Shown piece by piece: positions 1-63,144 of a stretch of 64,000 bases of DNA (positions within the stretch are counted from its first letter, which is position 1; each line of letters starts with the position of its first letter). A program made the position numbers and the translations under genes. The notes beneath the pieces are model-generated. The model worked only from the letters and a program-made list of their open reading frames with translations, was not told the DNA's origin and made no database searches. The DNA comes from Mobula birostris (taxonomy: Eukaryota), in NCBI RefSeq assembly GCF_030028105.1, contig NW_027274494.1, forward strand, positions 1-64,000. Reading direction: 5' to 3'.

Positions 1-320
1 AACAAGTTAGGACGCTGTGTTGCAACATTATAATGCTCAAATTAGGCTGTATCAGGCGGATTGTACAACGTTCCGGTCACCACATTACAGGAAGGATGTC
101 AAGGCTTTGGAGTGTCTCCAAGGAGTTTGAACAGGACGCTGCCTAGATTAGATGACATGTGTAACAACGAGAGGTTGGACACTTGGTTTATTTTCTCTGG
201 AACGGCGGAAGTTGAGACAGAGGATTCTTTTTTTAGAATATGAGAAGCATAGAGAGATTAGACTGTTAGTATCTTTTCACCAAAGTTGAAATGTCTAATA
301 CCAAAGGGAATGTACTCAGA
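1..320 (+). mobile_element. CR1-type LINE 3' ORF2 fragment (degenerate)
   Basis: ggtcaccacattacaggaaggatgtcaaggctttggag resembles the WSPxYRKD..ALE region seen in the other CR1 copies in this window. Confidence 0.65.
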
Positions 321-559
321 ATAACACTGTGAGTCTGTTATGTGGTGAAAAGCTTGGTCTGCCTTCTCTGTGTGACAATAATAAACCAATTTACGAAATC
401 TACCAGGCGGGATGTCCTAAACATACAATGGCTAGATTATTATCCATGTTCTCATCTGAGCTTTTGCCACAGACGGCAGATTTCCCATTGCGGATCAGTA
501 GTTAACACCACTTGTCACTGACGACCAACCAACGGCCTCCGGCCTCTGTGTTCTGTAGA

Positions 560-1080
560 CAAGCCAATTCGGATTCCAAATGGCCAATTCACTGTAGATC
601 CAATGCATCACAAAATTATGAATGACTCTTCCATGACAGAGACGTTGCCAAAGGCCAGTCTAAAGTTAACTCTTTAACACCCTACTGCCCTGCACGATAA
701 TCCCAAGATTCCTCTGTATGTCGCCATTTAAGTTCTGCCGTTAACTGTTTCCTGTCCCTTCACATTTACTTGGTAAAGCGCAAAGCCTCACATTGACCCG
801 GGTTAAACTTCATCTGCCTTTTCTCCACCCACATTAACAACTGATCGATATTCCACTGGATCCATGGACGATTTTCTACACTGGCCACAATGCCACCAAA
901 CTTTGGCTCGTTTGCAAATTTACCAACCCACACAACTCCATTTTCATCGATGTCAGTCCGATCCATCAACAATACCAGAGGTCCCCGCGCTGGTCACTGC
1001 GGAACGCCACTAATCACAGACCACAAGCGAGAATAAGTCCCATCCGTCAGCACTCTGTGCCCTGTGTAAGCAGGCCAACT
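560..1080 (-). mobile_element. CR1-type LINE reverse transcriptase fragment
   Basis: ORF 766-972 reads WVGKFANEPKFGG...QMKFNPGQCEAL, a decayed KFADDTKIGG...WQMxFNxxKC motif. Confidence 0.75.
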
Positions 1081-1594
1081 CAAAGTTAAAATCTCAGTAT
1101 TCAAAATACATTTATTATCAAATCTTCTTTCTTTATTTCTTTATATTTAACCCTGAACCACCCCGCCATTCAGGACAAAGCAATTCTTCAATGTAATCCT
1201 AAACTAATTTCCGAACAATTTACAACTTTGAAAAATAACAAACTCCGAATGCTAACGGACAATTCCCCATGATCTGTTGGATAAGGCTCTCCTGAGGGAC
1301 TGACTCAAACGCCCAACTCAGGTCCATGTGGACAACATCCAGGACTCTAACTTCATCGATCACACTGAAGACAGTAAAACACCCCTCGAATCAGTGAGAC
1401 AACAGTCAGAGTTTTCCAGAGTCATGGAATTTGAACTCTCAGCGATGCCGACTGGAAAGTTGATGAGATTGAGGGGGGGGGGGGGCGGGGGCGGGGGTGA
1501 TCGTGGTGGACGGAGAGAGCGCCGATGTTGGGTGGGAGCGAAACCCTGTGGGTGTCACGGCTGAATTCACACATACTGAATGGTCTCTCTACAG

Positions 1595-1711
1595 GTGCGC
1601 ATAAACAAGAGCCGAAAGAGAACATCGGAAATAGATCCTGCCTGAAGATCTGCCTGCTCTGCTTAGTTACGTCCGTCCTCGTCGCGATAGTGGCCGGGCT
1701 CTTGATCTATG
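1595..1711 (+). CDS. Gene A juxtamembrane/TM exon (117 bp, phase 1-1)
   Basis: ctctctacag|GT...TATG|gtgagt; GAHKQEPKENIGNRSCLKICLLCLVTSVLVAIVAGLLIY, basic residues followed by a hydrophobic signal-anchor. Confidence 0.9.
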
Positions 1712-4700
1712 GTGAGTCCAACGGGAACCGGATGGTGTCCGACCATTAGGAAGCGGAAAGGATTGAAGTGCCCGCGTAAAACCTCACAGTGACGCCGACA
1801 CGGTTCTCAATGTCATAACGACATGACCCTCTTCGTAACACTAAGAGGACCGTTACCGTGACGCGGTCACGCCGTAACCGGCCCGCCCCTCAGCGTGACA
1901 ACATCGCTACCCGTACAGCGACACGGGCAGGAACCCGCACCTCCTCGTGACACGCTCATTCGGAAACTGCCGTGACCGTGATACTGACACACCCGTCTCC
2001 GTGACCTGGAAATGCCCGGTTCCGAATAAGGGACCCGCTCTCAAAGTCATATTGGCACATTTCTCACAGTAACACCCACACAGTTTCGCCATGAGTATAC
2101 GACCATAAGACATTCAGACACAGGAGCAGGCTTAGGCCGCTTGGCTCTTCCAGCCTGCTCCGCCATTTGATCATGGAAGATCAATTTCCCTCTGAACCCC
2201 AATCTGCTGCCTCCTCCCCGTATCCCTTCATACACTGACTAATCAAGAATCTATTAACCTCTGCACTAAATAAACCCAATATCGCCCTCTACAGTCCCTT
2301 TGCAATTCTCCCTACGTTTAGAAAATAATCTACGCTTTTACTTCTTGCTTAAAAGTGCCTGAACAGACATTGTATTCCCACATGACACTTCTTGGTCAAT
2401 TCTCCTCACCTATGTAGGTTTTCTATGTCCTCTCCTCTTCCTCTGCAACACCAGCCGCTCTACTTATCTTTGCACTTTCCGCAAACATGGCCAAAACCCT
2501 ATTATTTCCTTCATCTACATTGCTGACATTTTATGTAAAAGGTAGCGGTCTCATCTCAGACCTTCTGGAACACCACCAGTCGTCGGCAGCCAACCAGAGG
2601 TTTCTCCCGTCATTTCATTCCCACTCTTTGTGTCCTGCAAATCAGTCACTGCTCTATCAATTTTTTTTCCTGTAACAACATAGGGTTTTATCCTGTTATT
2701 CAGCCTCATGTGTGGTACATTGTCAATGGACTTCTGAAAATCCAAGTACACAAAATGCATCGATTCCCCTTTGTTTAACCTGAGCCATGTTCCTACAAAG
2801 AATTTCAAGGACTGATCATGCAAGATTTTGATAAATCTCAATCTGTGTAGAAGATGATGAGAGGCATTGAACGTTTGGATAATCGGAGGCTTTTTCCCGG
2901 GGCTGAAATGACTAACACGAGAGGGCACAGCTTTGTGGTGCCGGAAAATAGGTACAGAGGAGATGTCAGGGGCTTTTTTTTTTCACCCAGACAGTGGTGG
3001 GTGTGTATAATAGGCTTCCGGCGAGGTTGGTGGAAGCAGATACGATAGGGTCTTTTAAAAGACTACTGGACAGGTACATTGAGCTTAGAAAAGTAGAGGG
3101 CTATGTGTTACCCGAGATAATTTCTAAAGTAATTTCATTTTCGGCACAACATTGTGGGCCGAGGGCCATATTGTGCTGCAGACTTTCTCTGTTTCTAAGA
3201 TTTTCCTTGATCGAAACTATGCTGACTTCGGCCTAGTTTATCATGGGCCTCCAAGTACGTCGAAAGCACACACTTAATAATCGACTGCAATATCTTGCCA
3301 ACTACAGGGATCGGAGTGACAGGCCAGTGATTTCCTTCCTTCTGCCTATCTCCCTTGTTGAAGGGTGGAGTGTCATCTGCAATTTCCGAGTCTCCGGAAC
3401 CATGGCAGAATCCAATGATCATTGAAGAAGCAATTGTAATGCTCCACAATCTCTTCAGTCACCTCCTTCAGAATCCTGGGTTGTAGACCATCTATTCAAA
3501 ATGTCTTGTCTACCTCATACTTCTCAGTTTCACAAGCACCCTCTCTGTACCAGTGCCACCTTCAGTCACTTCAGCTCCCCGGCAATCTCAAATCTCACGC
3601 ATAATGTTAGTGTTTTTCACATAAATCCTGTTGCGTAATCCTTCTTCAATGCCTTCACCATTTCCCCTTCCCCGTTACTATGTCCCCAGTATCCTTTTCC
3701 AGTGATCCGATATCTACTCTCGGCTCTGCTTTACACTCTATATACCTGAAGAAACGTTTGATATCCTTAGCTTTTTACCTTTGCAGTTTTGTAACTCGAG
3801 CCACAATTATTCTACAACTTACGATCCTATGCCACATCTTTCCAATCATTTTATTCCAGTTTTTACCAACAGAGTCACGCCGCTCCCTGTACACACTTGC
3901 CTGTCTTTTCAATACAATGTCTGTCCTTGGGCGTTAAGCTCCCAGCTGTAATCTTCCTTCTGCCACGACTGAACGATATCCACGACGTCATATATGCAGT
4001 TTTATCTCACCGCTGAGTTTATTTAACCCCTCCAGAACAGCTCCAGAAAATCTGTTACTAAGGATTTTGTTTCACCTCGGGTTCAGTTACAGACAGTCCC
4101 ATTTGTACAGTTCGTAGCTCCTCCAGAAGAGATCTCAATGATCCGGAATTAGAAATCCTTGCCCCCGACAGCAATTAGTCAGGCACCGACATAACACTCA
4201 CCCTGACACCTTCACGCATCTCACCATGACACCGACACGCCCATCACCATAACTCAGAAATGTACCTGATAGTGACACCGACACGCCCATCACCATAACT
4301 CAGAAATGTACCTCATAGTGACACCGACACGCCCATCACCATAACTCAGAAATGTACCTCATAGTGACACCGACACGCCCATCACCATAACTCAGAAATG
4401 TACCTCATAGTGACACCGACTCACCTCTCACCGTGACAACCGACACGCTCTTCACAGGAACACATAAACAGCCTTTACCGTAACACTGATACGCGCCTCT
4501 CCACAACACGGAAACGGTTCTCGCCTTGACGCCGTCACAAATCCCACCGCGACAGTGACAGGCTTTTGACCGGAACATGGACACACTCATCAACGTGACA
4601 TCGACACATCCCTCAATATAACACCGACACGCCACTCACCTTGACACCAACACACCATTCACCTTCTCTCTCTCTCAGTGTTACAGATCCGTCAGTCTCT

Positions 4701-7375
4701 GATCGCCTCCGATCAAAAGTACCAGAGACTTTGGGAACAACATCAGGAGATGAACAGGACCCAGTGCCAATGTCCACTGCAAATTCACCAGCCGAACTCA
4801 ACCCTTGAACCAATGACATCAGAGGATTCCCGCGAGGACATCCCCCAGGATAAATGTCTCAATAATGTTTCCGTCCCCAGCAACAACGTCTCCATCCTCG
4901 AACACAAATTGTTTAACCTCCAAAGCAGCTACTCCATCCTAGTAAACAAATCGATCGTCCTGGAAAGCAACCTCTCCGTCCTGAGCACCGATCTCTCTGT
5001 TCAGCATCAAAAGCAAACCGATCTCCGCCGAATTTTCAATTACCTCGAAATGCAGTGTAGAGCTCTGAACGAAACCAAGGCTCAAATCTGCCATCTGCTG
5101 ACGAGGAGGAAAGGTGAGATAACAGCCGCCATTCACCAGTTCCTAATCACGGGATAGAAAGAGGAATCTATACCTTGTGGCTGGTCTCGGGAATGTTCAT
5201 TATGAGGATGCGATTGGACCGACACCCGTAGGGTTACACCGAGTGTGTGTTATGGGACGGTGGGGTGGAGCGCCACCTAGTGTCCTACATGGAGAATGTG
5301 TGATGGGGAGGTGTGGAGGGAGAGACACCAAGTATCTGTACCCGGGAGTGCGTGATGCGGTGCTCCGGAGACAGATTAGCTCAGGGTCTGACGCCGGCAG
5401 TGCGTCATTCCGCGGTTGAAACCGTGTGTTTCTGATAGACCGTGCGGGGGAGCTTCTCACTGTCTGACCCTGGGTATGTGTGATATGACAGTGTGGATGG
5501 AGATTCGGCCTGTTACTGATGCCGAGTGTCTGTGATGGGACGGCGCGGAGTGAGCTTCACTCCGTGTCTGACACCGGGTGTGTGTGTTGGAAGGGTCAGG
5601 GGGAGTTTCATTCTGTGTTTGAACGCCGGAATGGGTCATGGGACCGGTGTGGAGGGAGTTTCATTCTGTATTTGACACTGCGTGAGTGTGATGGGACGGT
5701 GTGAAGGGATTTTTTCCCCCAGCGGAAGTAATGAAGGAGGATTCACTGTTCCGTGTTCATGATTTCCAGATCAAGCGTGTTCCCGGAATTGGATCAGAAA
5801 TGAAGACCTTTGTTACTTCATATCCACATTTGAAATATCTTACGACGGAGCGAAACAGAATTGTTCAAACTCTGACTCAAAGCTTCTTGAAATAAATTCA
5901 AATGAGGAAGAGGTATGTGTCAGAAGACATATCCACATCAGAGTGGAGCTTCTTCCACACCGTCCCATCACATATTCCGGGGTCAGACACAGAGTGAAGC
6001 TCCCTCCACATTATCCCATCACATACTCCCGGGGTCAGACACAGAGCGTCTCTTCCTCCACACTGTCCTTTCGCACACTCCCGGGGGCAAACGCAGAGTG
6101 AAGCTCCCTCCACACCGTCCCATCGTATATTCCCGGGGCCGACACAGAGTAAATCTCCCTCCACACCGTCCCATAGCACACTCCTGGGGCAGACACTCAT
6201 TGAAGATCCCTCCATACCGTCCCATCGCACACTCCTGGGGCAGACACTGAGTGAAGATCCCTCCACTCCGTCTCATCACACTCGCCGGCGGTCAGAAAGT
6301 GAGTGACGCTCCTTAAATTGTGCTCATTTTGAATCATTAATGACAGCCATTTAATTTCACAGAATTTTATTAACAAAGCTGTCGGCGACCAAAATAATTC
6401 ATACTGGATTGGAAAATGCAAAGCCGGGTGAGATTAGGGTTCATGTAGGTTTTTGAAGAGAGAATGGGTCGTGAGTTTTATTTGGGGACTGATACGGGCT
6501 GCGAGAAGGGAGTGAACGTTGGGATTATATTGGGTAATGTCATGGGGCTGTGGGGTGAGAAAGGGGAGTGCGAGTATTTCGGGGAAAAAGACGCGGCCTT
6601 CAGATAGAAAGTGGATCAGGGGAAGTATTTTGGGGAATCAGACCGGCCTGTGGGGAGAGTGGAGCTGTGGGATTAGTTTGCAGATTGACACGGTTCCGTG
6701 GGAAGACGTTCAGAGTGTGGGAGTATCCTAGGGACTAACACGGGACCGTGGGGAGAGGCGGGCTTTGAGAGTAATGGGGAAGTAACAGGACTGTAGGGGG
6801 AAAATGGATCGTGGGGTTATTTTGAGGACTCCCGGAGCTCTGTGGGGAGAGAGTTGAGCAAGGGATCAATCTGGGGCTGACACAGGGCTGCAGAGAATGA
6901 GTCAGTGAGTGTTTTGGGAACTCGTACAGGTATGTGGGGAGAGAGGAGGTTAGTGAGAGTGTTTTGAGAATTGGTAGAGTTATGTGGGGAAAGATTGAGT
7001 CAGTGGGAGTATTGTGTGGACTGACACCGCTCGGTGAGGAAAGATTGAGTCAGTGGGAGTAGTTTCGGAACTGACACCGGTCGGTGAGGACAGATTGAGT
7101 CAGTGGGAGTAGTTTGGAGACTGACACAGGACTGTCTGCTGGAATTGTGTTGCTCCTTTTGAAATTGTTTACCCCTCCTTGACAGGAAGGTGGCCTCTAA
7201 TGTCGTGTACAAGGTGAACTCTGGAAAGTTCGAATGCAGTGAGTGTAAATCCAGTTGGCTTCACAATTGCAAAAATGATCAGCACCGTTTCATCTGTGAG
7301 AAGACGGCACCCGTGTGCCTGGATATTCCTGAAAAGATCCGGAGACTTTGTCAAAAGCCTGTCGGCCCTACTTGA
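1595..7375 (+). CDS. Gene A: type II transmembrane C-type lectin-like receptor with atypical CTLD (5 exons in window; cytoplasmic exon(s) presumably upstream of window)
   Basis: Exons 1595-1711, 4679-5113, 5770-5912, 6363-6427 and 7186-7375 have AG/GT boundaries and compatible phases, and splice into one open frame of about 316 aa ending TGA at 7375. Confidence 0.9.
1780..2095. repeat. Degenerate ~23-bp repeat (gtgacaccgacacgcccctcacc-like) of the TM-neck intron, 5' part
   Basis: Recurrent gtgac/ccgaca units; the same repeat fills the TM-neck intron of genes B, C and D. Confidence 0.7.
2105..4180 (-). mobile_element. Degenerate CR1 LINE (3' tail to ORF1/ORF2 fragments), host of a nested CR1
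   Basis: Minus-strand VYLDFQK..D.VPH (2551-2928) and NHWPVTPIPVVGKIL (3195-3449); reverse-complement 3' tail near 2105. Confidence 0.75.
2830..3196 (+). mobile_element. 5'-truncated CR1 3' end nested in opposite orientation, 8-bp TSD AAGATTTT
   Basis: TRGHS...FF..R...N.LP..VEA..I.SFK.LD C-terminal motif and tttctctgtttct tail; AAGATTTT at 2822-2829 and 3197-3204. Confidence 0.75.
4227..4420. repeat. Near-perfect 46-bp tandem repeat x4 within the ~23-bp intron repeat (4185-4660)
   Basis: tgacaccgacacgcccatcaccataactcagaaatgtacctcatag starts at 4227, 4273, 4319, 4365, with a partial copy at 4411. Confidence 0.95.
4679..5113 (+). CDS. Gene A coiled-coil neck exon (435 bp, phase 1-1)
   Basis: tctctcag|TG...AAAG|gtgag; VLQIRQS...heptads NNVSILE/SNLSVLS...NETKAQICHLLTRRK; many NxS/T sequons. 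Confidence 0.9.
5240..5705 (+). repeat. 52-bp minisatellite array (G-strand), neck-CTLD1 intron of gene A
   Basis: Degenerate copies of gggagtgtgtgatgggacggtgtggagggagattcactctgtgtctgacccc. Confidence 0.85.
5770..5912 (+). CDS. Gene A CTLD exon 1 (143 bp, phase 1-0)
   Basis: ttccag|AT...GAG|gtatgt; DQACSRNWIRNEDLCYFISTFEISYDGAKQNCSNSDSKLLEINSNEEE (C-x3-W-x6-CY, C1, LLxI..EE). Confidence 0.93.
5930..6300 (-). repeat. 52-bp minisatellite array (opposite orientation), CTLD1-CTLD2 intron of gene A
   Basis: cacactcccggggtcagacacagagtgaagctccctccacaccgtcccatca units. Confidence 0.9.
6363..6427 (+). CDS. Gene A CTLD exon 2 (65 bp, phase 0-2)
   Basis: ttcacag|AAT...GG|gtgag; NFINKAVGDQNNSYWIGKCKAG. 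Confidence 0.92.
6430..7135. repeat. G-rich ~50-bp degenerate repeat of the CTLD2-CTLD3 intron
   Basis: agattgagtcagtgggagta recurs at 50-bp spacing (6992, 7042, 7092); related repeat at 29720-30660, 42700-42950 and 59190-59560. Confidence 0.7.
7186..7375 (+). CDS. Gene A CTLD exon 3 plus Cys-containing C-terminal tail
   Basis: gacag|G AAG...TGA; KVASNVVYKVNSGKFECSECKSSWLHNCKNDQHRFICEKTAPVCLDIPEKIRRLCQKPVGPT*. Confidence 0.92.
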
Positions 7376-7709
7376 ATCAAATGACTACACTTTCTTTCTC
7401 CCCCCGACTGTCACAAACCCCATCCTCTGCCCTTCGCTCCTACCCTATTCTGCTCCCTCTCTGCATCACAATCTTACTCGCCATCTCGCCTTCTCTTTAC
7501 CCTCGTCCCTCTAAACTCCTTCTCTCCCTCATATCTCCTCCCCTCCCATTTCCCCATTTCATCCGAATTTCTTTCCACTCACGTTCTTGTCTCACTCTCC
7601 CCGTCCTCTTACCTCCCAATCCTTCGATTCTCTACTCCGTCTCTCTCCCACTCCCTCTCTCCTTTTTTACAAAATCCAATCGCTCTCCCTCTTCTCTCTT
7701 CAGCTACTC

Positions 7710-15000: not shown

Positions 15001-15172
15001 CGCACGAACTCCACCCACACTTCCCGCAACAACCTGCTCTCGGTTCCTCTTTTCATCGGCGATTCATCTGCTGTTTGCAGGTTTCGGTCTGACTCCCTTA
15101 TCATCACGGGTTTCTTCAGACCAAGGTTGCTTCCCCTTTCTGAGTTCAGAGACACAGAGAATCGCCGACAGG

Positions 15173-15237
15173 AAGGACGACAGCAGAATTACCTGCATAT
15201 GAAGTTCACAAAACGGACTCACTGTCTCCTTCCCGAG
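15173..15237 (+). pseudogene. Gene B cytoplasmic exon remnant (reconstructs as MDDSENYLHMKFTKTDSLSPSR)
   Basis: Aligns to the intact exon 63062-63128; donor G|gtgagt at 15238. Confidence 0.8.
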
Positions 15238-15279
15238 GTGAGTGGGACAGAAGGATGGAGGGAGAGAGTTTCAAACTTT

Positions 15280-15995: not shown

Positions 15996-16079
15996 GAGTT
16001 TGTGGCCTCCACTCTCCTCCATTCCCTCCCTTTTCCCACAGCACACAATTCCTTCTCTATGATTCTTAACTCAGGTAGT

Positions 16080-20721: not shown

Positions 20722-20835
20722 ACGACATGGGCAGTGAACGATCCACATGGAGAGACCGATCAGACTCAAGCATATGGCTAATCGGCGTTTTAACAGCGAC
20801 TCTCATTATCACGGGTATCTGCTGGAGGATTCATG
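20722..20835 (+). pseudogene. Gene B TM exon (114 bp, phase 1-1), second TM type
   Basis: tcgacag|AC...CATG|gtgagt; DDMGSERSTWRDRSDSSIWLIGVLTATLIITGICWRIH; followed by the ~23-bp TM-neck repeat (20880-21450). Confidence 0.8.
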
Positions 20836-26892: not shown

Positions 26893-27270
26893 TATCACAG
26901 ATTCGTCACTCTTTGATCACCTTCGACCGAGAGCACCAGAAACATTGTGAACAATACCAGGAGATGAACAGTACCCAGCGCCAGTGTGGACTGCAGGTAA
27001 ATGAATTGAACTCAACCCTTGAATACAATATAACTGAGAATTCCCGTCTGGTTGTCTCCCGAAGCACCTGTCTCAGGAATATTTCTGTCCTCAGTTGAAA
27101 CCTCTCCATCCTCGAAAGCGAATTTTTCGTAAACGAAAATACAAACTCCGCCCTGAACTCCAAACTGACACTAACTGATCTCCATCAACAGATCTCAGAC
27201 CTCGAAATGAAGTACCATACTCTCAGCGAAGTCAAGGCTCAAATCTGTCAACTGCTGTTCAGCAGAAAAA
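26893..27270 (+). pseudogene. Gene B neck exon (378 bp) with in-frame stop
   Basis: ctcag|TA TCA CAG ATT CGT...KAQICQLLFSRK|gtgagt; TGA at 27096-27098. Confidence 0.9.
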
Positions 27271-27449
27271 GTGAGTTAACACACCAACCCGCACACGTTC
27301 TCCCGCTACTCATCGCTGAGCAGAGTGAGAGGAAGCTATATTCTGAGTCTGATCCCGGAAGTGTGTGGTGGGATGGGGCGGCGAGCCCGACCCCTAGTGT
27401 CTGAGCTCGGTAGTGCGTGATAGGATGGTACGCCGGGTGCTTCACTCTG

Positions 27450-28543
27450 TAAACACAAAATACTCTGCAGATGATGGGAGCAAAGCAACACACGCAGCAC
27501 GCTGCAGGAACTCAGTAGGTCGGGCACCATCCGTGAAAAGGAGCAGTCAATGTTTCGGGCCGAGACTCTTCGTCAGGACTGAAGAGGGAGGGGACAGGGG
27601 CCCTATGAGAAGATGTGGGGAGAGGGTGGAAAGGAGAAGGCGGGTAGAAGCCAGGTGAAAAACCAGTACTGGGAAAGATCAAGGGGTGGGGGAGGGGAAG
27701 AAGGGACGGGATAGGCAGGAAAGGTGTAGAAAGAGTAGGTAAAAGCACAAAGGGTAGTAGAAAGAGGCAGAATCATGAGGGAGGTGACAGACAGCTGGAG
27801 GAGGGGGCAGAAGGAAAATGGGATGGGGGAAGGGAGGGGATGGGAATTACCGGAAGTTAGAGAATTCAGGCCAAGGGTCTGGAGACTACCCAGACGGTAT
27901 ACGAGGTGTTGCTCCTCCAACCTGAGTTTAGTCTGATCATGACAGTAGAGGAGGCCATGTCTGGACATATCGGAATGGGAGTCGGAAGCAGAATTGAAGT
28001 GAGTGGCAACCGCGAAATCCTGTCTTTTGTGGCAGACGGAGTGGAGGTGCTCGACGAAGCGGTCCCCCAATCTGTGTCGGCTTTCACCGATGTAGAGGAG
28101 GCCGCATCGGGAGCACCGAATGCAAAAAATAGCCCGAAAAAACTCACAAGTGAGGTGTTGCCTCACCTGGCAGGACTGTTTGGGGCCCGGAGAAATGGTG
28201 AAAGAGGAGATGTAGGGACAGGTGTAACACCTACGGTTACCAGGGAAGGTGCCGGGTGGGAGATACGTGGGGAGGGACGTGTACACTAGGGAGTCGCGGA
28301 GGGAACGATCCCTGCGGAAAGGGGAGATGGCTATAGAGGGAAAGATGTGCTTCGTGGTGGAATCCTGTTGAAGGTGGCTGAAGTTACGAAGGATAATGTG
28401 CTGCATCCGGAGGCTGGTGGGGTGGTAGGTGAGGTCAAAGGGATCTCTGTCCCTGTTGTGGTGGCGGGAGGATGGGGTGAGGGCTGAAGTGCGGGAAATG
28501 GAGGAGATGCGTGTGAGGGCATCATTGATGACGGTAGAAGGGT
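27450..28543 (-). mobile_element. Penelope-like element 3' part (GIY-YIG plus pLTR) inside the 52-bp array of gene B
   Basis: ORF 27603-28640: CIRCSRCGLLYIGESRHRLGDRFVEH...PLGLN. Confidence 0.88.
27544..27581 (-). ncRNA. Hammerhead ribozyme motif (CpG-decayed helix III)
   Basis: cagtc-CTGACGA-agagtctcggccc-GAAA-cATT-gactg. Confidence 0.6.
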
Positions 28544-28663
28544 CTGATCCCGTGTGGTGTTGGATGGGACGGAATGGAGGGAGATTCACTCTATCTCTCA
28601 CCACGATGTGCGTGATGAGACGGTAGGGAATGATATTCACTGCTACTTATTCCTAATTTCCAG

Positions 28664-28806
28664 AGCATACGTGTTCCGAGGAGTGGATCCAAAATAAAGA
28701 CCAATGTTATTACGTATCCATGTTTGATACATCTTTCAACACAGCGGTGCAGGAATGTTCAAACCGCAATGCAAGGCTGCTTGAAATCAAATCAAGGGAT
28801 GAAGCG
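28664..28806 (+). pseudogene. Gene B CTLD exon 1 (143 bp)
   Basis: HTCSEEWIQNKDQCYYVSMFDTSFNTAVQECSNRNARLLEIKSRDEA|gtatgt. Confidence 0.9.
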
Positions 28807-28839
28807 GTATGTGCCACGGCACAAGAAGATCTCACAGGA

Positions 28840-29570
28840 ATCATCACCCACTCCCGGGGTCAGACACAGAATAACACCCACAATATACTCCCAGCACACA
28901 GTCCCGGGTGAGACACAGAGTGACACCCATACTACACTCCCAAGACACATACTCGGGGTCAGACACAGAGTGCAGCTCCGTCCACAACGTACCATCACAC
29001 ACCTCCGGGGTCAGACACAGAGTGAATCTCCCTCCACACCGTCCCATCACAGACTCCGGGGTCAGACACAGAGTGAATCTTCTTCCACAACGTCCCATCA
29101 CACACTCCCGGGGTCAGACACAGAGTGAATCTCCCTCCACAACGTACCATCACACACTCCCGGGGTCAGACAGAGAGTGACACCCACAATATACTCCCAG
29201 CACACAGTGCCGGGTGAGACACAGAGTGACACCCATACTACACTCCCAAGACACATACTCGGAGTCAGACACAGAGTGCAGCTCCATCCACAACGTACCA
29301 TCACACACCTCCGGGTTCAGACACAGAGTGAATCTCCCTGCATTCCGTCCCATCACACACTCCGGGGTCACACACAGAGTGAATCTCCCTCCACACCGTC
29401 CCATCACACACTCCGGGGTCAGGCACAGAGTGAATCTCCCTCCACACCGTCCCATCACACAATCCCGGGGTGAGACACAGAGTGAATCCCCCTCCGCACC
29501 GTCCCATCACACACACCCGGGGTCAGACACAGAGTGAACCTCCCTCCGCACCGTCCCATCACAGATTCCT
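28840..29570 (-). repeat. 52-bp minisatellite array with a 306-bp higher-order duplication
   Basis: Variant unit cacccacaatatactcccag at 28875 and 29181. Confidence 0.9.
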
Positions 29571-29645
29571 GGTGTAGTCAACCGAAAGAAGCTCTCTAAA
29601 TAGTTTTCGTTTCTTAGAATTAATCAGATAAATTTAATTTCCCAG

Positions 29646-29710
29646 AGTTTTCTATCCCAGGAACTTGTGTACCGATACCGTGCATACTGGATTGGAAAAT
29701 GCGAAGACGG
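29646..29710 (+). pseudogene. Gene B CTLD exon 2 (65 bp)
   Basis: SFLSQELVYRYRAYWIGKCEDG|gtgag. Confidence 0.9.
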
Positions 29711-30743
29711 GTGAGATTTGGACTGGTCTGTGGGGTGAGAGTTGGGCATTGAAATAGTCCTGACGGAGGGAAAAGGGATTCGTTTACGATGAGAGTGTAT
29801 GAGGTTGTCGGGAGAGTTTGGTACAATGGGAACATTTTGAGGCCGACATGTGTCTGTCGGGGAAGGACGGAGCAGTGTGAATATTTCGGAAACCTCCAGG
29901 GGGCAGTGGGGAGAGCTCAGAACACAGGGATTACGTCATTTGGGTACTGACGATTGTCGGTGAGGAGGGCGCGGTGGAGTGGGATCATTTTGGAGATAGT
30001 CGCCGGGCTGTGAGGAGGGGGAGCAACAGCAGGATTAGTTTGGTGAATGTCAGAGATCTGAAGGCCGAGAGTAGGACAACTGGATCAGTTTGGAGACCGA
30101 TACAGGCGGTGGACACACAGTGGGTTAATGGGATTAGTTTGCGAACTGACGCACGGGTGTGGGAGGGAGGGTGCCAGTGGTGTAAGTCTGGAGATGGACC
30201 CAAGGCTATGAGGAGAGTGCGGTGCAGTGGGATATGTTAGCAGACTGGCGCGAAGCTCTGGGTAGAGGGAAGAGCAACGGGATTAATCTGGGACCGACTA
30301 GGGCTGAGGGAAGTTTGTGGACAAGTGGGATTCATCTCGGGACAGAGATAAGTCTGTGCGGAGACGGTGGGACAGTGGGGTTTGTTCGGGGAGTTAAACA
30401 GATCTGAGGGGAGAGGGTGGGCCTGTTTGATTCGTATGGGGAGTGACAGGGGACTGTGGTGAAAAAGTGGTTCGGTGAGTTAGTTTGGAGAGACACAGGG
30501 CTGTGGGGCGACATTGGATCAGTACGATTAATTTAGGGACAGCCACAGTATTCTGGGGAGACATTGGGACCGTGGTATCTGTCTGGGTACTGGCGTGACA
30601 GTGGATGAGTGGGATGAGTTTGCGGACTGACTCAGGCTGTTAGGAGAGAGCGATTTCATGGGTTAGCTTGTGGACGATCTCGGATCGGGTTCTCTGCTGG
30701 AGCTGTTTTGTCTCTGTTTAAATTGTTTATCCCTGTTGGACAG

Positions 30744-30933
30744 GAATGTGGGCCCGAGTCTCCTGCACAGCGTGTTCTCTAGATCTTCCGTCTGTTTAGA
30801 TTGCAACTCGCATCTAGGGAACGACCGTTGCAATCGTGATTGGCGTTTCATCTACGAAAAGTCGGCACCTTTGTTTCCGGATGTTCCTGAAAAGATTAAG
30901 GATCTCTGTCGACAGCCACTGGAGGCGAAGTGA
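30744..30933 (+). pseudogene. Gene B CTLD exon 3
   Basis: NVGPSLLHSVFSRSSVCLDCNSHLGNDRCNRDWRFIYEKSAPLFPDVPEKIKDLCRQPLEAK*. Confidence 0.9.
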
Positions 30934-42415: not shown

Positions 42416-42614
42416 TCACTTGATTGAAGTCGGCCCGTCAGGCTGTTGACAGAGATCCTGGATCTCTTCAGGAATATCCGGGTATAAATATGCAGTCTTC
42501 TCGCAGATGAATCCATATTTACTTTTGCAATTGTAAATCCATCCGTACGAGTCGCACTTACTGCAGGTGGGCGATCCATGGGACATCTTGTAGAGAAGAT
42601 AAGAGGCCACATTC
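42416..42614 (-). CDS. Gene C CTLD exon 3
   Basis: NVASYLLYKMSHGSPTCSKCDSYGWIYNCKSKYGFICEKTAYLYPDIPEEIQDLCQQPDGPTSIK*. Confidence 0.9.
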
Positions 42615-45600
42615 CTATCAAAGAGGGTTAGACAATTTCAACAGAGACACAGCAGACCCAGCAGACAACCGGAGAACGTGGCCAAGCTCATCCCTCTAAC
42701 CTGCGCTCTCCCCACAGCCCCTTGTCAGACTCTGAACTAATCCCATGATACCGCGCTCTCCGTACAGAGCCAGCTCCAACGCCGTACGAATCCCACTACA
42801 GTGCTGTCCCATACAATCCTGAGTCAGTTCCTAAATTAATCCCACCGCACCAGCCTCTCCCGACAAGCCAGTATCAGTCAACAAACTAATCTCAATTTCA
42901 AACGCTCTCCCCACATCCTCGTGTCACTCGCAAACCACCGACCTGCAAGAGTCCAAACCTCACCCGTCTCTGCATTTTCCAATCCAGTAAGATCTGTCTG
43001 CATAGCCGATAGAGCTGGAAACAAAATCCTGTGAAATTAAATCCCTTCGATTAATGTGCATGTAACGCGCTGGGAAATGTTCCACTACTAATGTAATGGT
43101 TTCTCTGCAGCAGTAGTGTGTTTGGGTTATGACCAGAGATAACGGGGGCCTTGGGAATGTGCGGCGTCCCATGATGGGAGGAGGTTTCTTTCTTGTGTGT
43201 CCGACAGCGAAGGTTCCTCGGGCTTTATTTCAAGAAAAGATACAGATAGGAAATGCCACAACGGGGAAGTCGTAGACTGCAGGCCTGAGCGGACTTGGAA
43301 TGGTGTCGGGAGTCGACGACACCCCGGGGGAAATCGATAGAGAACGAACGGACGGGAAGGCAGTAAGATACAACAAGCGTTTTAGACAGATTAGTTAAAA
43401 TGGGCCTTTTTTCTCCTTGTTTTCTACACTAACCCTACAGTCAAATGAAGAAATATAAAGCTCACAGGTTAAATTGCATATGGTGTACTTCTCGTTACTT
43501 TGTGCGAGCAATTTGTAACCGGGGAACTCATCACGCAGCATCCATACAAATGATATTTCACAGCATGGACGGGCCGTGGACAGTCTCGCCTCGACCCCGC
43601 CCAGACAAACGCATGATGGTCGAACCTGAGGGTTACATTTGGCCTCTCTTCATGCCTGAACAGGAGAGCATGTGAAGCGTTGGTACAAAGAGGGAATTGC
43701 CCAGTCTCGGACCCCTTGAGTGTGCGATGGGACCATTGTGGAGGGAGCTTCACTCTGTGTCTGACCCCGGGAGTGTGTGAAGGGACGGTGTCGAGGAAGT
43801 TCCATTCTATGTCTAACCCCGGGAATGAATGATGGGACGGTGTGCAGGGAATTTCACTCTACGTCTGATCTCCGGAGTATGTGATGGGACAGTGTGGAAG
43901 GAGCTTCACTCTCTGTCTGACCCCAGGAGTGTGTGATGGGAAATTGTGGTCGGAGCCTCACTCTGTGTCTGCCCCCGGGAGTGTGTGAAGCGACGGTGTC
44001 GAGGGCGTTGCACTCTACGTCTGACCTCGGGAGTGTGTTGTGGGACGGTTTGGAGAGAGCTTCACTTTGTGACTGACCCTGGGACTGTGTGATGGGACGG
44101 TGTGAAGGGAAATTCGCTGAGTGTCTCATCCCGGGAGTGTGTGATGGGACGGTGTGGAGGGAAATTCACTCTGTGTCTGACTCCTGGAATGTGTGATTTG
44201 ACGGTGTCGAGGGAGCATCACTCTGTGTCTGATCCCAGGAGTCTGTAATGGGACAGTGTCGTGGGAGCTTAACTCTGTGTTGGACTTCGGCTGTGTGTAA
44301 TGCGACGATGTGGAGGGAGCTTCACATTGTGTCTGACCTCGGGAGTGTGTGATGGGACGGTGTGGAGGGAGCTTCGCTCTGTGTCTGACCTCGAGAGTGT
44401 GTGATGGGACGGTGTGGAGGGAGCTTCACTCTGTGTCGGACCCCGGGAGTGTGTGATGGGACGATGTGGAGAGAGCTTCACTCTCTGGCTGACCGCGAGT
44501 GTGTGTGATGGGACAGTGTGGAAGGACATTCACCGAGTCTTCCACGGGAGTGTGTGATGGTACGCTGTGGACTGATTTACTGCATGTTAGAACCCGGGAG
44601 TATGTGATTGTTATTGGTATCTCTTCTCACGATGTGACACATACCTTTTCCTCCTTTGAATTTATTTCGAGGAGTCTTGCATCAAGGTCTGAGCAATATT
44701 CCCTCGCTTCATCATAAGATTTCCCCCACGTGGATATGAAATAACACCGGTCTTTATTTCTCTGCCAGTACTGGGGACACGTTTGCCCTGCAAATCAGGA
44801 AATAGTGAATAATTTGCCAGAACGCTCATTTCACCAGCAGGGCTCGGAGAAAGGCAACCTCTCTCTACTCCGTCACATCACAGATCCCGGAATCAGACAC
44901 ACAGTGAAGTACCCTCCGCAACGTCTTTTCACACAGTCCCGGTGTCAGTAACAGAGTGAAGCTGCCTCCACACCGTCGCATCACACACTCCCGTGGTCAA
45001 TTACAGCGGCATGCTTACTCCATACTGTGCCATTGTACAATCCCATGGTTAAAAAAAAAGTGTAGATTCCTAGAAACCGTAACATCAAAGGATTTCCGGG
45101 TCAGGCAGGGAGAGAATCTCCCTCCAAATGTCGCAGTAAGCACAGCAGGTGACGCTGCTGTCATACGGTCCCATCACACACTCCCGGTATCAGACACAGA
45201 GTGAAGCTCCCTCTACACTGTTTCATCACACACTCCGGGCATCGGACATGGTGTGAATTTCCCTCCACACCGTCCGATCCCGCACTCCCAGGGTCAGACA
45301 TAGAGTGAATCTCCCTCCACGCCGTTCCATCACAAACTTCCTGGGTCAGACATAGTGTCATGTTACTCCACGCCGTCCCATTGCACAATCCCAAGGTAAA
45401 ACACAGTGTAGATCCTTTGAAACAGCAACATCACTGATTTCCGGGTCAGACACAGAGGGAATCACCCCGCACACCGTCCCATCACACAGCTCTCCGCCTC
45501 CTCCCTCCCCGTCTCTCACCGCCGCGGATGAGGAGCAAGGGGAAGCGGGGGACGTTATCTCACCTCTTCTGCTGGTGAAGTATTGGCAAATCTGAGCTTT

Positions 45601-47197
45601 GTTTTCGGAGATGGTTCTGTACTTCGTTTTGAGCTGCTGGAATTGATGACGGAGATCGATTTGCGTTCGATTCAGCTCTGAGAGATCGGAGTTGAGGACG
45701 GTAATGTTGTTTTCGAGTTTGGAGAGGTTGTTGTTGAGGACGGAAATATTCTTCAGACAGTTTCTCTGGGAGAGATCCAGGCGGGAATTCTCAGATGTCC
45801 TGGATTTAAGGGTTGAGTTCAACTCACGGACTTGCTGCTGACATTGGCGTTGGGTCCTGTTCATCTCCTGATGTTGTTCCCAAAGTCTCCGGTAGTTTCG
45901 GTCGGAGGTGATCGGAGACTGACGAGTCCGTGATACTGAGGGTGATAGTAAGGAGTGTGTCAGTGACACGGTGTGAGGTGTGTCTGTGTCAGAGTGAGGG
46001 GTGTGTCGGTCACAGTGATGGGTCTCACTCTGACACGGTGTGAGAAATGTCGGCGTGACGCAGAGGGGTGCATCAGTGTCACGGAGAGAGTTGTGTCATT
46101 GTCACAGTGAGTGAAGTGTCCGTGTCACGGTGAAGGGACGGCAAATGTTACGGTCTGGAGTGTGTAAGAGTCACAGTGAGGAGAGTGTCGGTGCCACGGT
46201 GACGGGACTGTCGGTGTTACAGTCAGGGGCGTGATGATGTCACAGTGTGGAGCGTGCATGAGTCACAGTGAGGGGCGTGACGCTGTCACTCTGAGAGCAG
46301 TGTCAGTGACAGTGTGGGGTGTGTAAGTGTCACGGTAAGGGAAGTGCCGGTGTAATAGTTTGAGCTTGACAGTGTCACGGTGCGGGGTATGTGTCGTGTC
46401 ACGGTGAGGGATATGTGTCGGTTTCACGGTGAGTAATGTATCGGTGTCACTGTGCTCGCAGTCTCAGTGTCAAGTTGTGGGGAGTATCGGTGTCACAGTG
46501 AGGGAACAGTCAATGTCACGGTGCGGAGAGCTTCGGGATCACGGTGTTGGAAGTGCCAATGTCGCAGTGAGTGGTGTGGTGGTGTCACAGAGAGGGGATT
46601 GCCGGTGTCACAGTGATGTGAGTGTCGCTATCACGCAGATTGCTCTGTCACTGTTACAGTGAACGGTGTGTCGGTGTGACAATGAGCGGTTTATCAGTGT
46701 TACGGAAAGGGTTGTGTCGGTGTCACCGTGAGTGAAGTGTCGGTGTTACGGTGGAGGGCGTGTCAGTGTTTCTATGTGCAGTGTATAAGTGTCACGGTGA
46801 AGAGAGAGGCGGTGTCACAGTGAGGGAAGTGTCCGTGTCACAGTGAGGGGGAGTGTCAGTATCACGGTGTGGGCCGTGAGAATTTCACGGTGTGGGGACG
46901 GCCGGTGTCACGGTGAAGGGTGTTACTGTATCCTTGTGAGGGGAGACTCAGTCTTATGATGTGGGGTGTGTCGGTGTCACTGTGGGGGGCGTGTCGGTGT
47001 CACGGTGAGGTTATGCGCTAACACTTCATCCCACTCTGTTTGTTTATGGTCTGACTCCTGCCGGAGCTCGTTCGACTCACCATGGATCGAGAGGCCGGCC
47101 ACTATCGCGACGAGGATGGATGTAACGAGGCAGAGTAGGCAGATCTTATGGTACGCTCTATTTCCGATGTTTTCTTTCGACTCTTGTTTATGCGGAC
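42416..47197 (-). CDS. Gene C: type II C-type lectin-like receptor, open from TM exon to stop; no cognate cytoplasmic exon found upstream
   Basis: Exons 47197-47081, 45935-45564, 44787-44645, 43028-42964 and 42614-42416 have canonical AG/GT and splice in frame (about 298 aa). Confidence 0.85.
42964..43028 (-). CDS. Gene C CTLD exon 2 (65 bp)
   Basis: ttcacag|DFVSSSIGYADRSYWIGKCRDG|gtgag. Confidence 0.9.
43061..43637 (+). mobile_element. Solo LTR (same family as 10171-10770)
   Basis: TGTAAC...GTTACA termini; shared tgtaacgcgc, cactactaa and aatggtttctctgcag blocks; no clear TSD. Confidence 0.7.
43715..44600 (+). repeat. 52-bp array, gene C CTLD1-CTLD2 intron
   Basis: G-strand units on +, which are C-strand on the gene sense strand. 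Confidence 0.9.
44645..44787 (-). CDS. Gene C CTLD exon 1 (143 bp)
   Basis: tttgcag|GQTCPQYWQRNKDRCYFISTWGKSYDEAREYCSDLDARLLEINSKEEK|gtatgt. Confidence 0.92.
44870..45490 (-). repeat. 52-bp array, gene C neck-CTLD1 intron
   Basis: C-strand units on +, opposite to 43715-44600. Confidence 0.85.
45564..45935 (-). CDS. Gene C neck exon (372 bp)
   Basis: VSRTRQSPITSDRNYRRLWEQHQEMNRTQRQCQQQVRELNSTL...NKAQICQYFTSRR|gtgag. Confidence 0.9.
45950..47010. repeat. ~23-bp degenerate repeat, gene C TM-neck intron
   Basis: gtgtcggtgtcacggtgaggg units. Confidence 0.85.
47081..47197 (-). CDS. Gene C TM exon (117 bp)
   Basis: GPHKQESKENIGNRAYHKICLLCLVTSILVAIVAGLSIH|gtgagt; close paralogue of the gene A TM exon. 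Confidence 0.9.
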
Positions 47198-53051: not shown

Positions 53052-53204
53052 CTCTTCTGCTGGTCAACAATTCACAGATTTGAGCCTTGGTTTCGTTCAC
53101 AGCTTTGTACTTCGTTTCCATCTCGTTGATCTCGGACTGAAGAATTGAGTTCAACTCATGGCAGTTTCGGTCGAGGGTGGTCTGAGACTGACGAATCTGT
53201 GATA
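53052..53204 (-). pseudogene. Gene D: orphan short neck exon (153 bp, in frame, splice sites intact)
   Basis: ctctctcag|VSQIRQSQTTLDRNCHELNSILQSEINEMETKYKAVNETKAQICELLTSRR|gtgagg; ~23-bp intron repeat upstream (53230-54170); no TM or CTLD exons of its own seen. Confidence 0.8.
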
Positions 53205-54480
53205 CTGAGAGAGATGGTGAAGGATGTTTAGCCTTTACAGTGACACGTGAGTCAGCATCACGTTACCGAGCGGGTCACAGAGAGTCTTGTGTCAGTGTCA
53301 CGTTGAAGGTCGTCACAGTGAGTGGCGTCGGCCTGTCGTGTCACGCTGACGGGTATATTAATGTGTCGGTGAAGGTTACGTTGTTGTTCCAATGGGGGTC
53401 TCCGGCAATATCATGCGGGGCATATTCGAGTTGCTGTGAAGGACGTGGCGTGCCACCGTGATAGATGATTCTGTGCCCCGGCGAGAGTTGCTCCAGGCCG
53501 CAATGAAGTGTATCTCGATGTCAGGGCGAGGGAAATGTCAGAGGGGCTTGGTGGTGTCATGGTGAGTATCTGTGCGATGGTGTGGGGTGTGCTGGTCTCA
53601 CAGAGGGGGGTGTGTCTTTGGCACGGTAAGAGGCGTGTCATTTCCACGGTGGGTGTGACGGTGCCAGGCTAAAGTGATTTGGTAGCACGTTAACAGGTTT
53701 GCTTGTGTCAGGATGAGGTGTGGGTAATTGCCTCAGTGAGCGGTGCATCGCTATTTTCGGCGATACTGCCTCGGTAAGGTTTGTTACATTGGCATCTGAG
53801 TCTTTGTCACGAGGCGGTGCTGAGCGGATCACCTTAAGGAATGTGATGTTGTCACGATGAAGAGCGTGTCGGTGTCATTGTGAGATATGTTTCGGTGTCG
53901 CCTTGAGCAGTTTATCATTGACACGGTCAAAGGCTTGTCGCTGTTACAGTGAGGGGTTGGTTGCGGTCAGTGTGACGGCCATGTGTGTATCACGGCGATG
54001 CTCACGTCCTTGTCGTGGTTAGGAGTCTATCTGTGTCTCGTTGAAGGTCGTGACCGTGCTACGGTGACAGCATTGTTCATGTTATGGTGAATGGCCTGTC
54101 AGTGTCAGGATGAGTCTTGATTGTGTTACGGTGAAGGTCGTGTCCTTATTACGGTTAGAGGCTTGTCTGTTTTATGGTGGTAGGTTTTAAGAAATGAATT
54201 GTACTTTGTCATTAGCCATGTGTATTCATCTGTCAATATATCATTGAAATTAGCAGAATAAAGCTTAATCGATCTACTGCCTGAACAAATTAGAACCAAG
54301 AATCGCGAATAATAATACAAAATGCCACGAAGGTGTGATTCCAAGGCTGGGGTCTCTAGATGAACCTGGGTTCAGCTAGAGGAAACATCAGTCCGTGGGG
54401 GATAGCTCTTCCTCCCTGTGAGTTGGGGGTCCCCATTACAGTACCCATAAAAGTAAGTGGACATGTAACCCCAGCTCCCT

Positions 54481-62170: not shown

Positions 62171-63061
62171 TGCGTCACTGGACGAGGAAGTCGAGGACCG
62201 AGTTTCGAGGGGAGCTGCTCACCTCACTCCGAGGGAGGGGACTCATTCACCTCGGTGGATGCTGGGGCTTTGTCCCGGGGCCGTGGTTTCTCCCAGGCAG
62301 AGCGTCTGAAGCCCCGGCGATAGTCCGGAGCTGTGTGAGCGTCCGACGCGCAAATCAGTGCCCAATCACGGGGTGCAAATCTCCAGGACAAGAGAGGCTT
62401 TTATGAGTGACACAAATCCCTCCGACATTCCCTCCTTCCTCATTCCTGCCCTCCTTCTCGACTTCCCTCCTTCCTTTCCTTTCCCCCCTCCCCTTCCGAT
62501 GCCTCTCTGCTTCCATCGTCAGCATTCCTTCTCCCTCATCCCTCCCCTTCCTGCACTCCTTTCCTTTGTACATCGCTCACTTTCTCCTCCCTATCCTCGT
62601 CTCCGCTCCCTCTGATTCCATCTCTGTCAAGCTCTCTTCACCCCGTTCGCTCGCCCTCTCTTTTCTCCCTCTTCCTCCCAATATCTCCAAATCTCCCCCT
62701 CTCTATTCTCCCCTTTCTCCTTCCCTCCTTTCCTCATCTCTATCGCTCTCAGTTCCCTCTCTCCAAAGACTCCCTGTCACCCGCTTCACTCTCTCCACTA
62801 AACACCAAACTTCCCCTCTCTCTCTTCGTCCCCCCACTTTCTCCCCACTTTTACTACTCTTCCCCACCACTCTAAACACTTCCCCAAAGCCCTCATCCTC
62901 TCTCCTCCCCGCACTTCCTCCACTTGTTCTCGGTTCCTCTCCTTATCAACTGCTCATCTGTTGTTTGTTGGTGTCTGTTTGACTCCGTTGTCAACACGGG
63001 CTTCCTCTGACAACGGTCGCTTCCCCTCTTGAGCTCAGAGACGCAGGGAATCCTCGACAGG
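62171..63061 (+). promoter_or_regulatory. Putative promoter/5' UTR of gene G
   Basis: Paralogous to 14233-15172; tgcgtcactgga, ggggccgtggtttctc, gtgcaaat, cttcccct (PU.1-like on the minus strand). Confidence 0.55.
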
Positions 63062-63128
63062 ATGGGCGACAGCGAGACTTACATGAATGTGAAGTTCACA
63101 AAAACGGATGCACGGTCTCCTTCCCCAG
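63062..63128 (+). CDS. Gene G first coding (cytoplasmic) exon, MGDSETYMNVKFTKTDARSPSP; gene continues beyond the window
   Basis: aggATGg Kozak context; phase-1 donor G|gtgaga; homologous to the gene B exon remnant. Confidence 0.8.
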
Positions 63129-63144
63129 GTGAGAGGGACAGAGA

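Follow-up and report, generated by a model that had tools for sequence, protein, structure and literature searches.

The first 64,000 nucleotides of contig NW_027274494.1 of the ray Mobula birostris (assembly GCF_030028105.1), the whole stretch that we call the window, hold gene A, which once spliced is an open type II C-type-lectin-like receptor, together with further open and broken members of its family. We read this family as a ray-restricted cluster of about 200 type II copies, likely paired inhibitory and activating leukocyte receptors, which are predicted to bind fast-changing ligands without Ca2+ through a compact CTLD (C-type lectin-like domain) derived from a sugar-binding ancestor, and we put the probability of this reading at roughly 0.6. 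An original prediction, made from the DNA alone, had proposed a lineage-restricted, expanded receptor family, and both attributes are borne out: the copies number about 200, and every named relative is a myliobatiform ray.

Gene A is composed of five exons with AG/GT ends, in a single open frame to TGA (residue numbers throughout are those of the database protein P0001, the closest to gene A, with 97% over exon 3):

1595..1711, + strand: juxtamembrane and transmembrane (TM) exon, placed by splice sites and frame; the twin copy on C17 (see below) gives 90% to P0001 14–54
4679..5113, + strand: neck exon, placed by splice sites and model; predicted helical stalk, ending in the AQIC neck cysteine C192
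5770..5912, 143 bp, + strand: CTLD exon 1, with β0, β1 and α1; C203, C214 and C231
6363..6427, 65 bp, + strand: CTLD exon 2, with α2, the WIG of β2 and the new C266; shark relatives have 14 more codons here
7186..7375, + strand: CTLD exon 3, first part, with a predicted β3–β4 hairpin, CxxC (C286, C289) and a hypervariable loop to C297
7186..7375, + strand: CTLD exon 3, rest, with the FICEK of β5 (C306), a tail helix with C324, and the stop

The three CTLD exons have the predicted phases, 1/0/2, as their splice sites and frame confirm, and the TM core of this type II protein has zero charged residues. From WIG to FICEK the spliced frame counts the 39 residues first read from the DNA, with WxWxDG, EPN and WND all missing. 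The same motifs are lost throughout the family: among 72 database relatives (of which one alignment left out four, P0019 and P0070–72), W[IVLT]GxC is found in 70 and WIGL, WxWxDG, WND and QPD in none, and the three matches to EPN/EPD all lie within the C-terminal tail, so that the claims of WIGKC in place of WIGL, and of lost long-loop motifs and a lost calcium and sugar site, both stand. The distance from WIG to FIC is 36–43 residues across the ray family, and the site of a Ca-dependent lectin (EPN or QPD plus WND), absent here, is present in the shark relatives.

The four cysteines of this segment had been called invariant, which does not hold for the family as a whole. In a tally of 104 of the 107 distinct sequences only C286 is universal (104), with C266 in 103 and C289 and C297 in 96 each; gene B, counted at first as a further witness, is weak evidence because it is likely a pseudogene (FIYEK, in-frame TGA), and an apparent mismatch in L014, which has all four, is an artefact of the pattern. 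Eight of the 104, which form one clade, have lost C289 along with C297 and keep C266 and C286. This clade has been amplified recently (P0068, P0251–P0260; L071, L072, L078, L081, L082, L085) and offers a natural knockout of the loop disulfide for structure work. The spacing between C289 and C297 varies from 4 to 12, polar residues follow C286, positions 275–277 are hydrophobic, and G282 is kept.

Two AlphaFold2 models were compared, of P0001 (68 sequences) and of P0109 (99 sequences; mean predicted local distance difference test score 81.6, with blocks of 69–86 over the region). Both have β2 at 261–265, a short link, a hairpin at about 274–288, no regular strand over 289–301, then β5 and the tail helix, so about 8 residues separate β2 from β3 where a canonical domain has its long loop. 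A fold search identifies a CTLD (Z 13.8, root-mean-square deviation 2.5, 100 aligned to 4qkg), with group II and group V domains tied, and the alignments extend over about 95–98 residues, compared with the 118–132 of canonical domains. Membership of the CTLD superfamily is also seen in C231 and C306, present in 104/104, and in Pfam Lectin_C, which at a cut-off of 22.6 matches P0001 and P0109 (28.1 and 35.8 bits) and falls just short in P0060 and P0078 (21.7 and 21.3). Pfam Xlink matched none of six proteins, and no Link chain is among the 50 listed fold matches; against viral models the listed rows held ordinary viral CTLDs only, Link and A33 not being among them, which is no evidence of a difference, and an Atlas feature search returned generic Lectin_C clusters. 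A predicted P0109 homodimer scored 0.25, below the 0.32 mark, and was used neither way.

The models thus describe what is likely a compact CTLD formed by a shift of register, in which the former EPN loop is now a hairpin and the old hairpin a free loop. The original prediction that a cysteine-stapled mini-domain replaces the long loop is right in that the loop shrinks to about 8 residues in both models; it is not right about what takes its place, for the former loop sequence becomes the β3–β4 hairpin itself and the cysteine loop comes after β4.

For the disulfides we favor C266–C286 plus C289–C297, instead of the canonical C2–C3, because C289 and C297 are lost jointly and C266 and C286 kept; we think this pairing fairly probable, and no higher, since the joint loss is one event, single losses occur, and the evidence is the pattern of cysteine losses. 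Counting against it are those single losses (only C297 in L084 and L027, only C266 in P0111, only C289 in L010–L013), the nature of the joint loss as a single event, and the colinear alignment, which taken alone predicts C286–C297 and C266–C289. These last bonds belong to the alternative in which the ancestral register is kept, C286–C297 being C2–C3 around a shortened hairpin and a residual loop, 267–285, being stapled by the new C266–C289. Exon 3 is indeed colinear with shark exon 3, and hhalign aligns the two likewise, but both models put strands at 274–288 and none of at least three residues between C289 and C297; the polar residues after C286, the conserved hydrophobic 275–277, the variable C289–C297 spacing and the joint loss argue the same way, and we regard a kept register as rather unlikely.

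The shifted register would be accompanied by a further bond, from neck C192 to tail C324, which we consider a good probability. The earlier suggestion that the tail cysteine pairs with that of the neck gains support from the sharks, the two residues occurring together in 86/104 ray proteins and in 23/25 canonical relatives, from which we infer the bond. Eleven of the 104 have the tail cysteine and no neck cysteine, which speaks against the pairing; all are neck-less or 5′-truncated models. Isoforms P0007, P0014, P0044 and P0061 skip the neck exon and carry the tail cysteine without its inferred partner.

The extent of the family was estimated in several ways. An exact exon-2 DNA pattern matches the genome 215 times, as against once in a reversed control, and 94 of the first 100 listed of these 215 lie in C17 101.2–111.1 Mb; a search with exon 3 gave 150 scored matches out of 301 candidates, nearly all in the same interval. 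A word-based protein search found 71 relatives, named only from Mobula, Hemitrygon and Hypanus, and of the family-type clusters from a profile search of 1.84 billion representatives, all 27 that were looked up belong to these genera. Protein databases, from which this range is drawn, therefore suggest that the family is absent from skates, sawfish and sharks. Of the 49 copies with all three exons in their stretch, 37 are intact, 11 are broken, and in one the splice sites are broken. The database calls these proteins OLR1-like, CD94-like or KLRB1-like, names given automatically, which agrees with the expectation that automated annotation would miss the remodeling. Positions 1–7672 of the window are 99.98–100% identical to L051 and L001 (C17 104.55 Mb), with an identical exon 3 at four places; the window start and its C17 twin may stem from a very recent segmental duplication, or the contig may represent a haplotype, and copy counts may include redundancy. 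The most divergent member is P0112 of Hypanus, with WVENC for WIGKC and a shorter hairpin, which may mark an early branch.

A literature search, partial for subscription papers, found no description of the ray family; in the accessible main text of the preprint on manta and devil ray genomes the terms lectin, CLEC and KLR occur zero times, and the accessible portion of PMC10751288 mentions no such family. The family is probably new, and only probably, because literature coverage is partial.

Signaling types are mixed. Among 70 TM-bearing relatives a strict immunoreceptor tyrosine-based inhibitory motif (ITIM) occurs in 21, compared with 3.2 in shuffled tails, and a relaxed one in 44, compared with an expected 7.3; 14 have no cytoplasmic tyrosine, although some of these models may be 5′-incomplete, and 5 have a TM arginine. 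Gene A is of the short, tyrosine-less type, and the upstream first exons of its C17 twin start after the ancestral tyrosine. At the sequence level there are thus ITIM-bearing members alongside ITIM-less and charged-TM members with related ectodomains, which suggests paired receptors.

Selection was measured on intact copies, 36 of them distinct, drawn from 85 stretches (16 without a detectable exon 2, 21 without both other exons), with purpose-written codon models whose M0 likelihood equals that of IQ-TREE. M2a is preferred over M1a (likelihood-ratio test, LRT, 42.0; p 7.5e-10) with 18% of sites at omega 2.2, and 6 of the 10 sites with P>0.9 are in 290–300, the others being 244, 255, 274 and 279; M8 against M8a gives an LRT of 31.7, and an indel-free subset of 17 copies one of 24.5. 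Families of paired leukocyte receptors with variable ligands are marked by birth-and-death turnover, by signaling types that oppose one another and by selection acting on surface loops; the ray family fits this established pattern in all three and is likely such a set.

The ligands could instead still be carbohydrates or microbial polymers, bound without Ca2+ by phagocyte pattern-recognition receptors in the manner of Dectin-1 or Link modules. The ancestor was probably a sugar-binding lectin, compact Link-type CTLDs exist (PMC9630629, in its accessible text), and the variable loops are rich in aromatic and basic residues, but some 200 copies with turnover, many ITIMs and diversifying selection would seem to suit variable ligands over conserved glycans, and we find this alternative improbable, about as much so as a kept register.

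As to ancestry, the best non-family matches with a single CTLD (within the top 150 out of 1.84 billion representatives) are shark lectins of the EPN/QPD type, aligned over cytoplasm, TM and neck and named automatically as CD209-like or CLEC17A/CLEC10A-like. These proteins, from Cetorhinus, Carcharodon, Scyliorhinus, Mustelus and Heterodontus (P0211, P0185 and P0187 among them; names automatic), are the nearest known system. The alignment of ray and shark profiles spans 294 columns at a probability of 99.9 (E 5e-35); it begins at the N-terminal YMN motif, takes in the tyrosine motifs, the end of the TM and the neck cysteine, and reaches the tail cysteine. The two share YMN, the SYxEL/YAQV tyrosine motifs, the TM end, the CTLD front half, a neck cysteine 11–12 before C0, a phase-2 exon 2/3 boundary, a tail helix ending in cysteine and multiple copies, whereas the shark lectins retain WIGL, WxWxDG, EPN/QPD, WND and at least 55 residues from WIG to FIC, compared with 36–43 and two added cysteines in rays. 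Of 25 canonical relatives (counting P0285, without species label), 24 have WxWxDG, 23 WND, 16 EPN, 6 QPD, 25 the neck cysteine and 23 the tail cysteine. The conserved tail, which had been taken for a novelty of the family, is present in these same 23, and since the shark lectins are homologous over their whole length, neck and tail cysteines included, the tail is ancestral.

Truncated shark isoforms diverge directly after WVDG(S/T)xV, which would place the end of shark exon 2 there, 14 codons beyond that of the rays. From its start to FIC, exon 3 has 36 residues in sharks compared with 34 in rays, with G, C, W and C near-identically placed (G13/G14, C17/C18, W24/W26, C28/C31), and because of this colinearity C286 and C297 would descend from canonical C2 and C3, with C266 and C289 new and the tail old; of the four cysteines called new, two are therefore old. 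The shark EPN-type family is also multi-copy (P0211, P0261–P0275; Cetorhinus, Carcharodon), with many models on small scaffolds and with both tyrosine-motif and short-tail isoforms. The ray family forms one clade (100/98) in a front-half tree, for which the motif filter dropped 17 of 48 listed proteins and which has no group V sequences.

The ray genome has canonical CD209-like genes of its own on C37, beside a full-length TRAPP gene and without the tail cysteine. At C37 14.4–15.8 Mb there are nine canonical exon-2 matches, several with an EPN/WND exon 3, adjoining a single-exon TRAPP gene, likely the CD209/CLEC4G-type locus of the ray. A genome search with shark exon 3 plus tail gave 16 weak canonical exon matches, zero with the tail, and the 11 places matched by a canonical exon-2 pattern all lie outside the cluster; neither search found an intact shark-type copy, and both can miss divergent ones.

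On C17 the order is TPI1 (94.74 Mb), the cluster (101.2–111.1 Mb), an A2M/A2ML1-type gene (111.63 Mb) and M6PR (111.79 Mb); human TPI1 is at 12p13. In the accessible parts of the papers concerned, M6PR frames the mammalian natural killer (NK) complex (PMC11484026), A2M is a signature gene of it (PMC5002281), the group II Dectin-2 cluster lies in its region (PMC11624271), and two papers state that cartilaginous fish yielded no orthologs of the NK cluster (PMC8455134, PMC5002281). The position beside A2M and M6PR, with three of the four markers searched found on C17, lends some support to an association with an NK complex; class I genes of the major histocompatibility complex are on C6, not C17. 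Some 7.5 Mb off the cluster, at C17 93.68–93.69 Mb (L041), stand a canonical QPD-type CTLD exon 3 on the + strand and a canonical exon 2 on the − strand, probably of two genes because the strands are opposite.

This position raises the question of whether the family is a divergent group V lineage (KLR, CLEC2, Dectin-1 cluster) and truly orthologous to the receptors of the mammalian NK complex, which is what the earlier proposal of group V kinship would imply. The missing Ca motifs point the same way, as do PDB sequence and fold matches that include CLEC9A, LOX-1, CD69, LLT1, CLEC12A and NKp80 among the best, and an Atlas feature match to KLRB1C at 0.91. But the PDB sequence matches are confined to the front half (46–114 of P0007), group II fold matches tie within 1 Z, group V retains the long loop, and the closest canonical relatives, the top single-CTLD matches outside the family among the 150 best, aligned over cytoplasm, TM and neck, are the shark lectins with EPN/QPD and WND. 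Descent from group V is thus unsupported, and we think it quite unlikely.

Binding of a zinc ion by the four cysteines, with no disulfides, has the CxxC spacing and a weak zf-TRAF_2 match (20.3 bits, cut-off 27) in its favor, but the extracellular location after a type II TM and an amplified open-frame clade without two of the four make it very improbable.

That exon 2 really is this short, as first proposed, was seen in gene A and in 70/70 genomic copies in which it was detected among the 85 stretches (62–77 bp, 65 bp in 52; shortest intron 2, 302 bp). In contigs from four probable-RNA public runs, the GT–AG joint 5113/5770 between neck and exon 1 is found in all four and the exon 2/3 joint 6427/7186 in three. 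In run X3, joints of equal depth skip 5913–6399 and 6422–7190; the divergent letters between, 35 and 9, are as many as a divergent paralog should show when its exons 1-2-3 are joined and no other is inserted. An additional exon restoring the long loop was seen neither in these contigs nor in intron 2 of genes A and C, which has no CTLD loop motif (WxWxDG or W..GEP) and in which read-through meets a stop at once; intron 2 of gene B has a single WxWxxG, which a stop precedes. The same splicing layout recurs in the database gene models of three genera, although the Mobula-labeled ones are not independent because they may come from the same genome. A missed exon, mis-splicing or decay as the source of the short exon 2, with the loop restored or the copies pseudogenes, could appeal to the many broken copies in window and cluster but is largely refuted by the direct joints, the loop-free introns, the layout shared by three genera, and an omega of 0.12 on β2 and 0.45 on β5.

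Several observations weigh against our overall reading. The RNA status of the four runs is a computed guess, none being recorded as RNA. The fourth locus marker failed, no ATG8/GABARAPL1-type gene being on C17 among 11 matches. The front-half tree joins rays and sharks weakly (73/75) and does not reject a grouping of the ray family with the ray's own C37 lectins (p-value of the approximately unbiased test 0.46). Four of the five TM-arginine members also have relaxed ITIM-like motifs. Finally, removal of the loop lowers the selection LRT to 10.9, the signal of selection is absent from a 6-sequence indel-free subset (p 0.5), and it may alternatively stem from gene conversion between paralogs.

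Under the reading of compact paired receptors, the ancestor would have been an ITIM-bearing, Ca-dependent lectin like those that sharks retain. Its exon 2 would have lost 14 codons, WxWxDG included, and exon 3 would have diverged at a kept length. After β2 and about 8 residues the former EPN-loop sequence would fold as the β3–β4 hairpin (274–288), the former β3–β4 region would become a free hypervariable loop (290–300), C266–C286 and C289–C297 would replace canonical C2–C3, and C192–C324 would fix the head on its stalk. The α2–β2 loop, the hairpin tip and the cysteine loop would form the binding face. ITIM members would recruit SHP phosphatases, while tyrosine-less members such as gene A and TM-arginine members would act via adaptors or as heterodimer partners, and the likeliest ligands would be cell-surface proteins of self or pathogen.

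Put at its boldest, and here we stop somewhat short of even odds, myliobatiform rays would possess their own NK-complex-like system at A2M–M6PR. There a family of Ca-dependent sugar lectins, which sharks still have intact, would have been shortened by half of exon 2, moved its second β-sheet into another register, exchanged its disulfide partners and grown to some 200 paired receptors whose ligands are self or pathogen proteins. If so, rays would have reached a compact CTLD by a third and independent route, repeating by convergence the transition from group II to group V, and would hold the candidate missing-self receptor set of a cartilaginous fish. Should our reading hold, cartilaginous fish gain a receptor complex missed by earlier genome studies; a 10-Mb cluster of some 200 copies adjoining A2M and M6PR in a ray makes target-cell recognition in these fish directly testable, and structural biology gains a predicted CTLD variant with intact relatives still alive, so that the path from sugar lectin to loop-less receptor is open to a stepwise, gene-by-gene comparison.

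Among known systems, group V receptors use their long loop as the binding surface. The ray family resembles them (KLRA/Ly49, KLRB/NKR-P1, KLRC/CD94, CLEC2 and the Dectin-1 cluster) as type II proteins with a single CTLD without Ca or sugar motifs, with ITIM as opposed to TM-arginine members, and in its large lineage-specific cluster framed by M6PR and A2M (accessible text of PMC11484026, PMC5002281); it is unlike them in its lack of a long loop, its long helical neck, its tail cysteine and its nearest relatives, which are sugar-binding lectins. With group II Ca-dependent lectins it shares the type II form, helical neck and three-exon CTLD, but not the Ca site. The Dectin-2 cluster (CLEC4: DCIR, DCAR, Dectin-2, MCL, Mincle, BDCA-2) is in the NK region with ITIM and adaptor-coupled members (PMC11624271, PMC11484026, each as accessible), yet keeps Ca-dependent sugar sites and has a handful of genes compared with about 200; it is plausibly the tetrapod counterpart of the shark-type ancestor. 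The ray domain has a long-form β0 hairpin and a new cysteine loop, unlike Link modules, which belong to type I or secreted proteins. Link modules keep C2–C3, and poxvirus A33 is another compact CTLD. The accessible text of PMC9630629 describes Link modules (CD44/TSG-6/LYVE-1) and bacterial CTLDs as having no long loop, through deletion from a canonical domain. The loss in rays would be independent of that in Link modules. CD23 (FCER2) is also type II with a stalk and a C-terminal cysteine; its stalk is a coiled coil towards which that cysteine is tied, its long loop is kept, and its tail cysteine is nearer to C4. The ray cluster would thus act like NK-complex paired receptors yet have neither the long loop of group V nor the Ca site of group II, and its domain is probably a new compact CTLD variant beside the Link modules.

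The rest of the window contains the following:

15072..15242, + strand: decayed first (cytoplasmic) exon upstream of gene B, frame broken, 81% to its intact counterpart at 63.0 kb
20722..20835, + strand: alternative-type TM exon of gene B (MGSER...SIWLIGV type), by sequence comparison
26893–27270, + strand: gene B neck, with an in-frame TGA near 27096
28664–28806, 29646–29710 and 30744–30933, + strand: gene B CTLD exons, C4 lost (FIYEK for FICEK)
42416..47197, − strand: gene C, an open frame from TM exon to stop
47197–47081 (TM), 45935–45564 (neck), 44787–44645, 43028–42964 and 42614–42416 (CTLD), − strand: gene C exons
53053..53214, − strand: orphan short neck exon (gene D fragment), 83% to P0032
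55078..59200, + strand: disrupted E/F fragments, with a frameshifted exon 1 near 55.1 kb and a neck with a stop near 57.6 kb
E/F, continued, + strand: disrupted exon 1 near 58.0–58.2 kb, and exon 2 with YWIGKC at 59164
63026..63128, + strand: first exon (MGDSETYMN...) of the family gene that follows; this gene runs past the window, and its CTLD exon 1 contains a stop (L053)

WIGKC is found in A, B and C as well as at 59164. From its exons gene B (26893..30933) is likely a pseudogene, and the 5′ exons of gene C were not found within the 64-kb window. The TM exon at 20722–20835 is of a second, unrelated-looking type (SIWLIxV...GICWRIH) that some members carry (P0002, P0025, P0047, P0052). Between genes lie what we take to be decayed fragments of LINE-like (long interspersed nuclear element) retrotransposons (18.4–18.5, 22.0–22.4, 32.6–32.9, 35.3–35.4 and 48.5–49.0 kb). 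A 51–52-bp minisatellite recurs in the introns of family genes (5531–6277, 15436–16004, 28842–29563, 43710–44571, 55266–56846, 58393–59022 and 61040–63998) and is very abundant in the probable-RNA runs; it could promote unequal crossing-over in the cluster.

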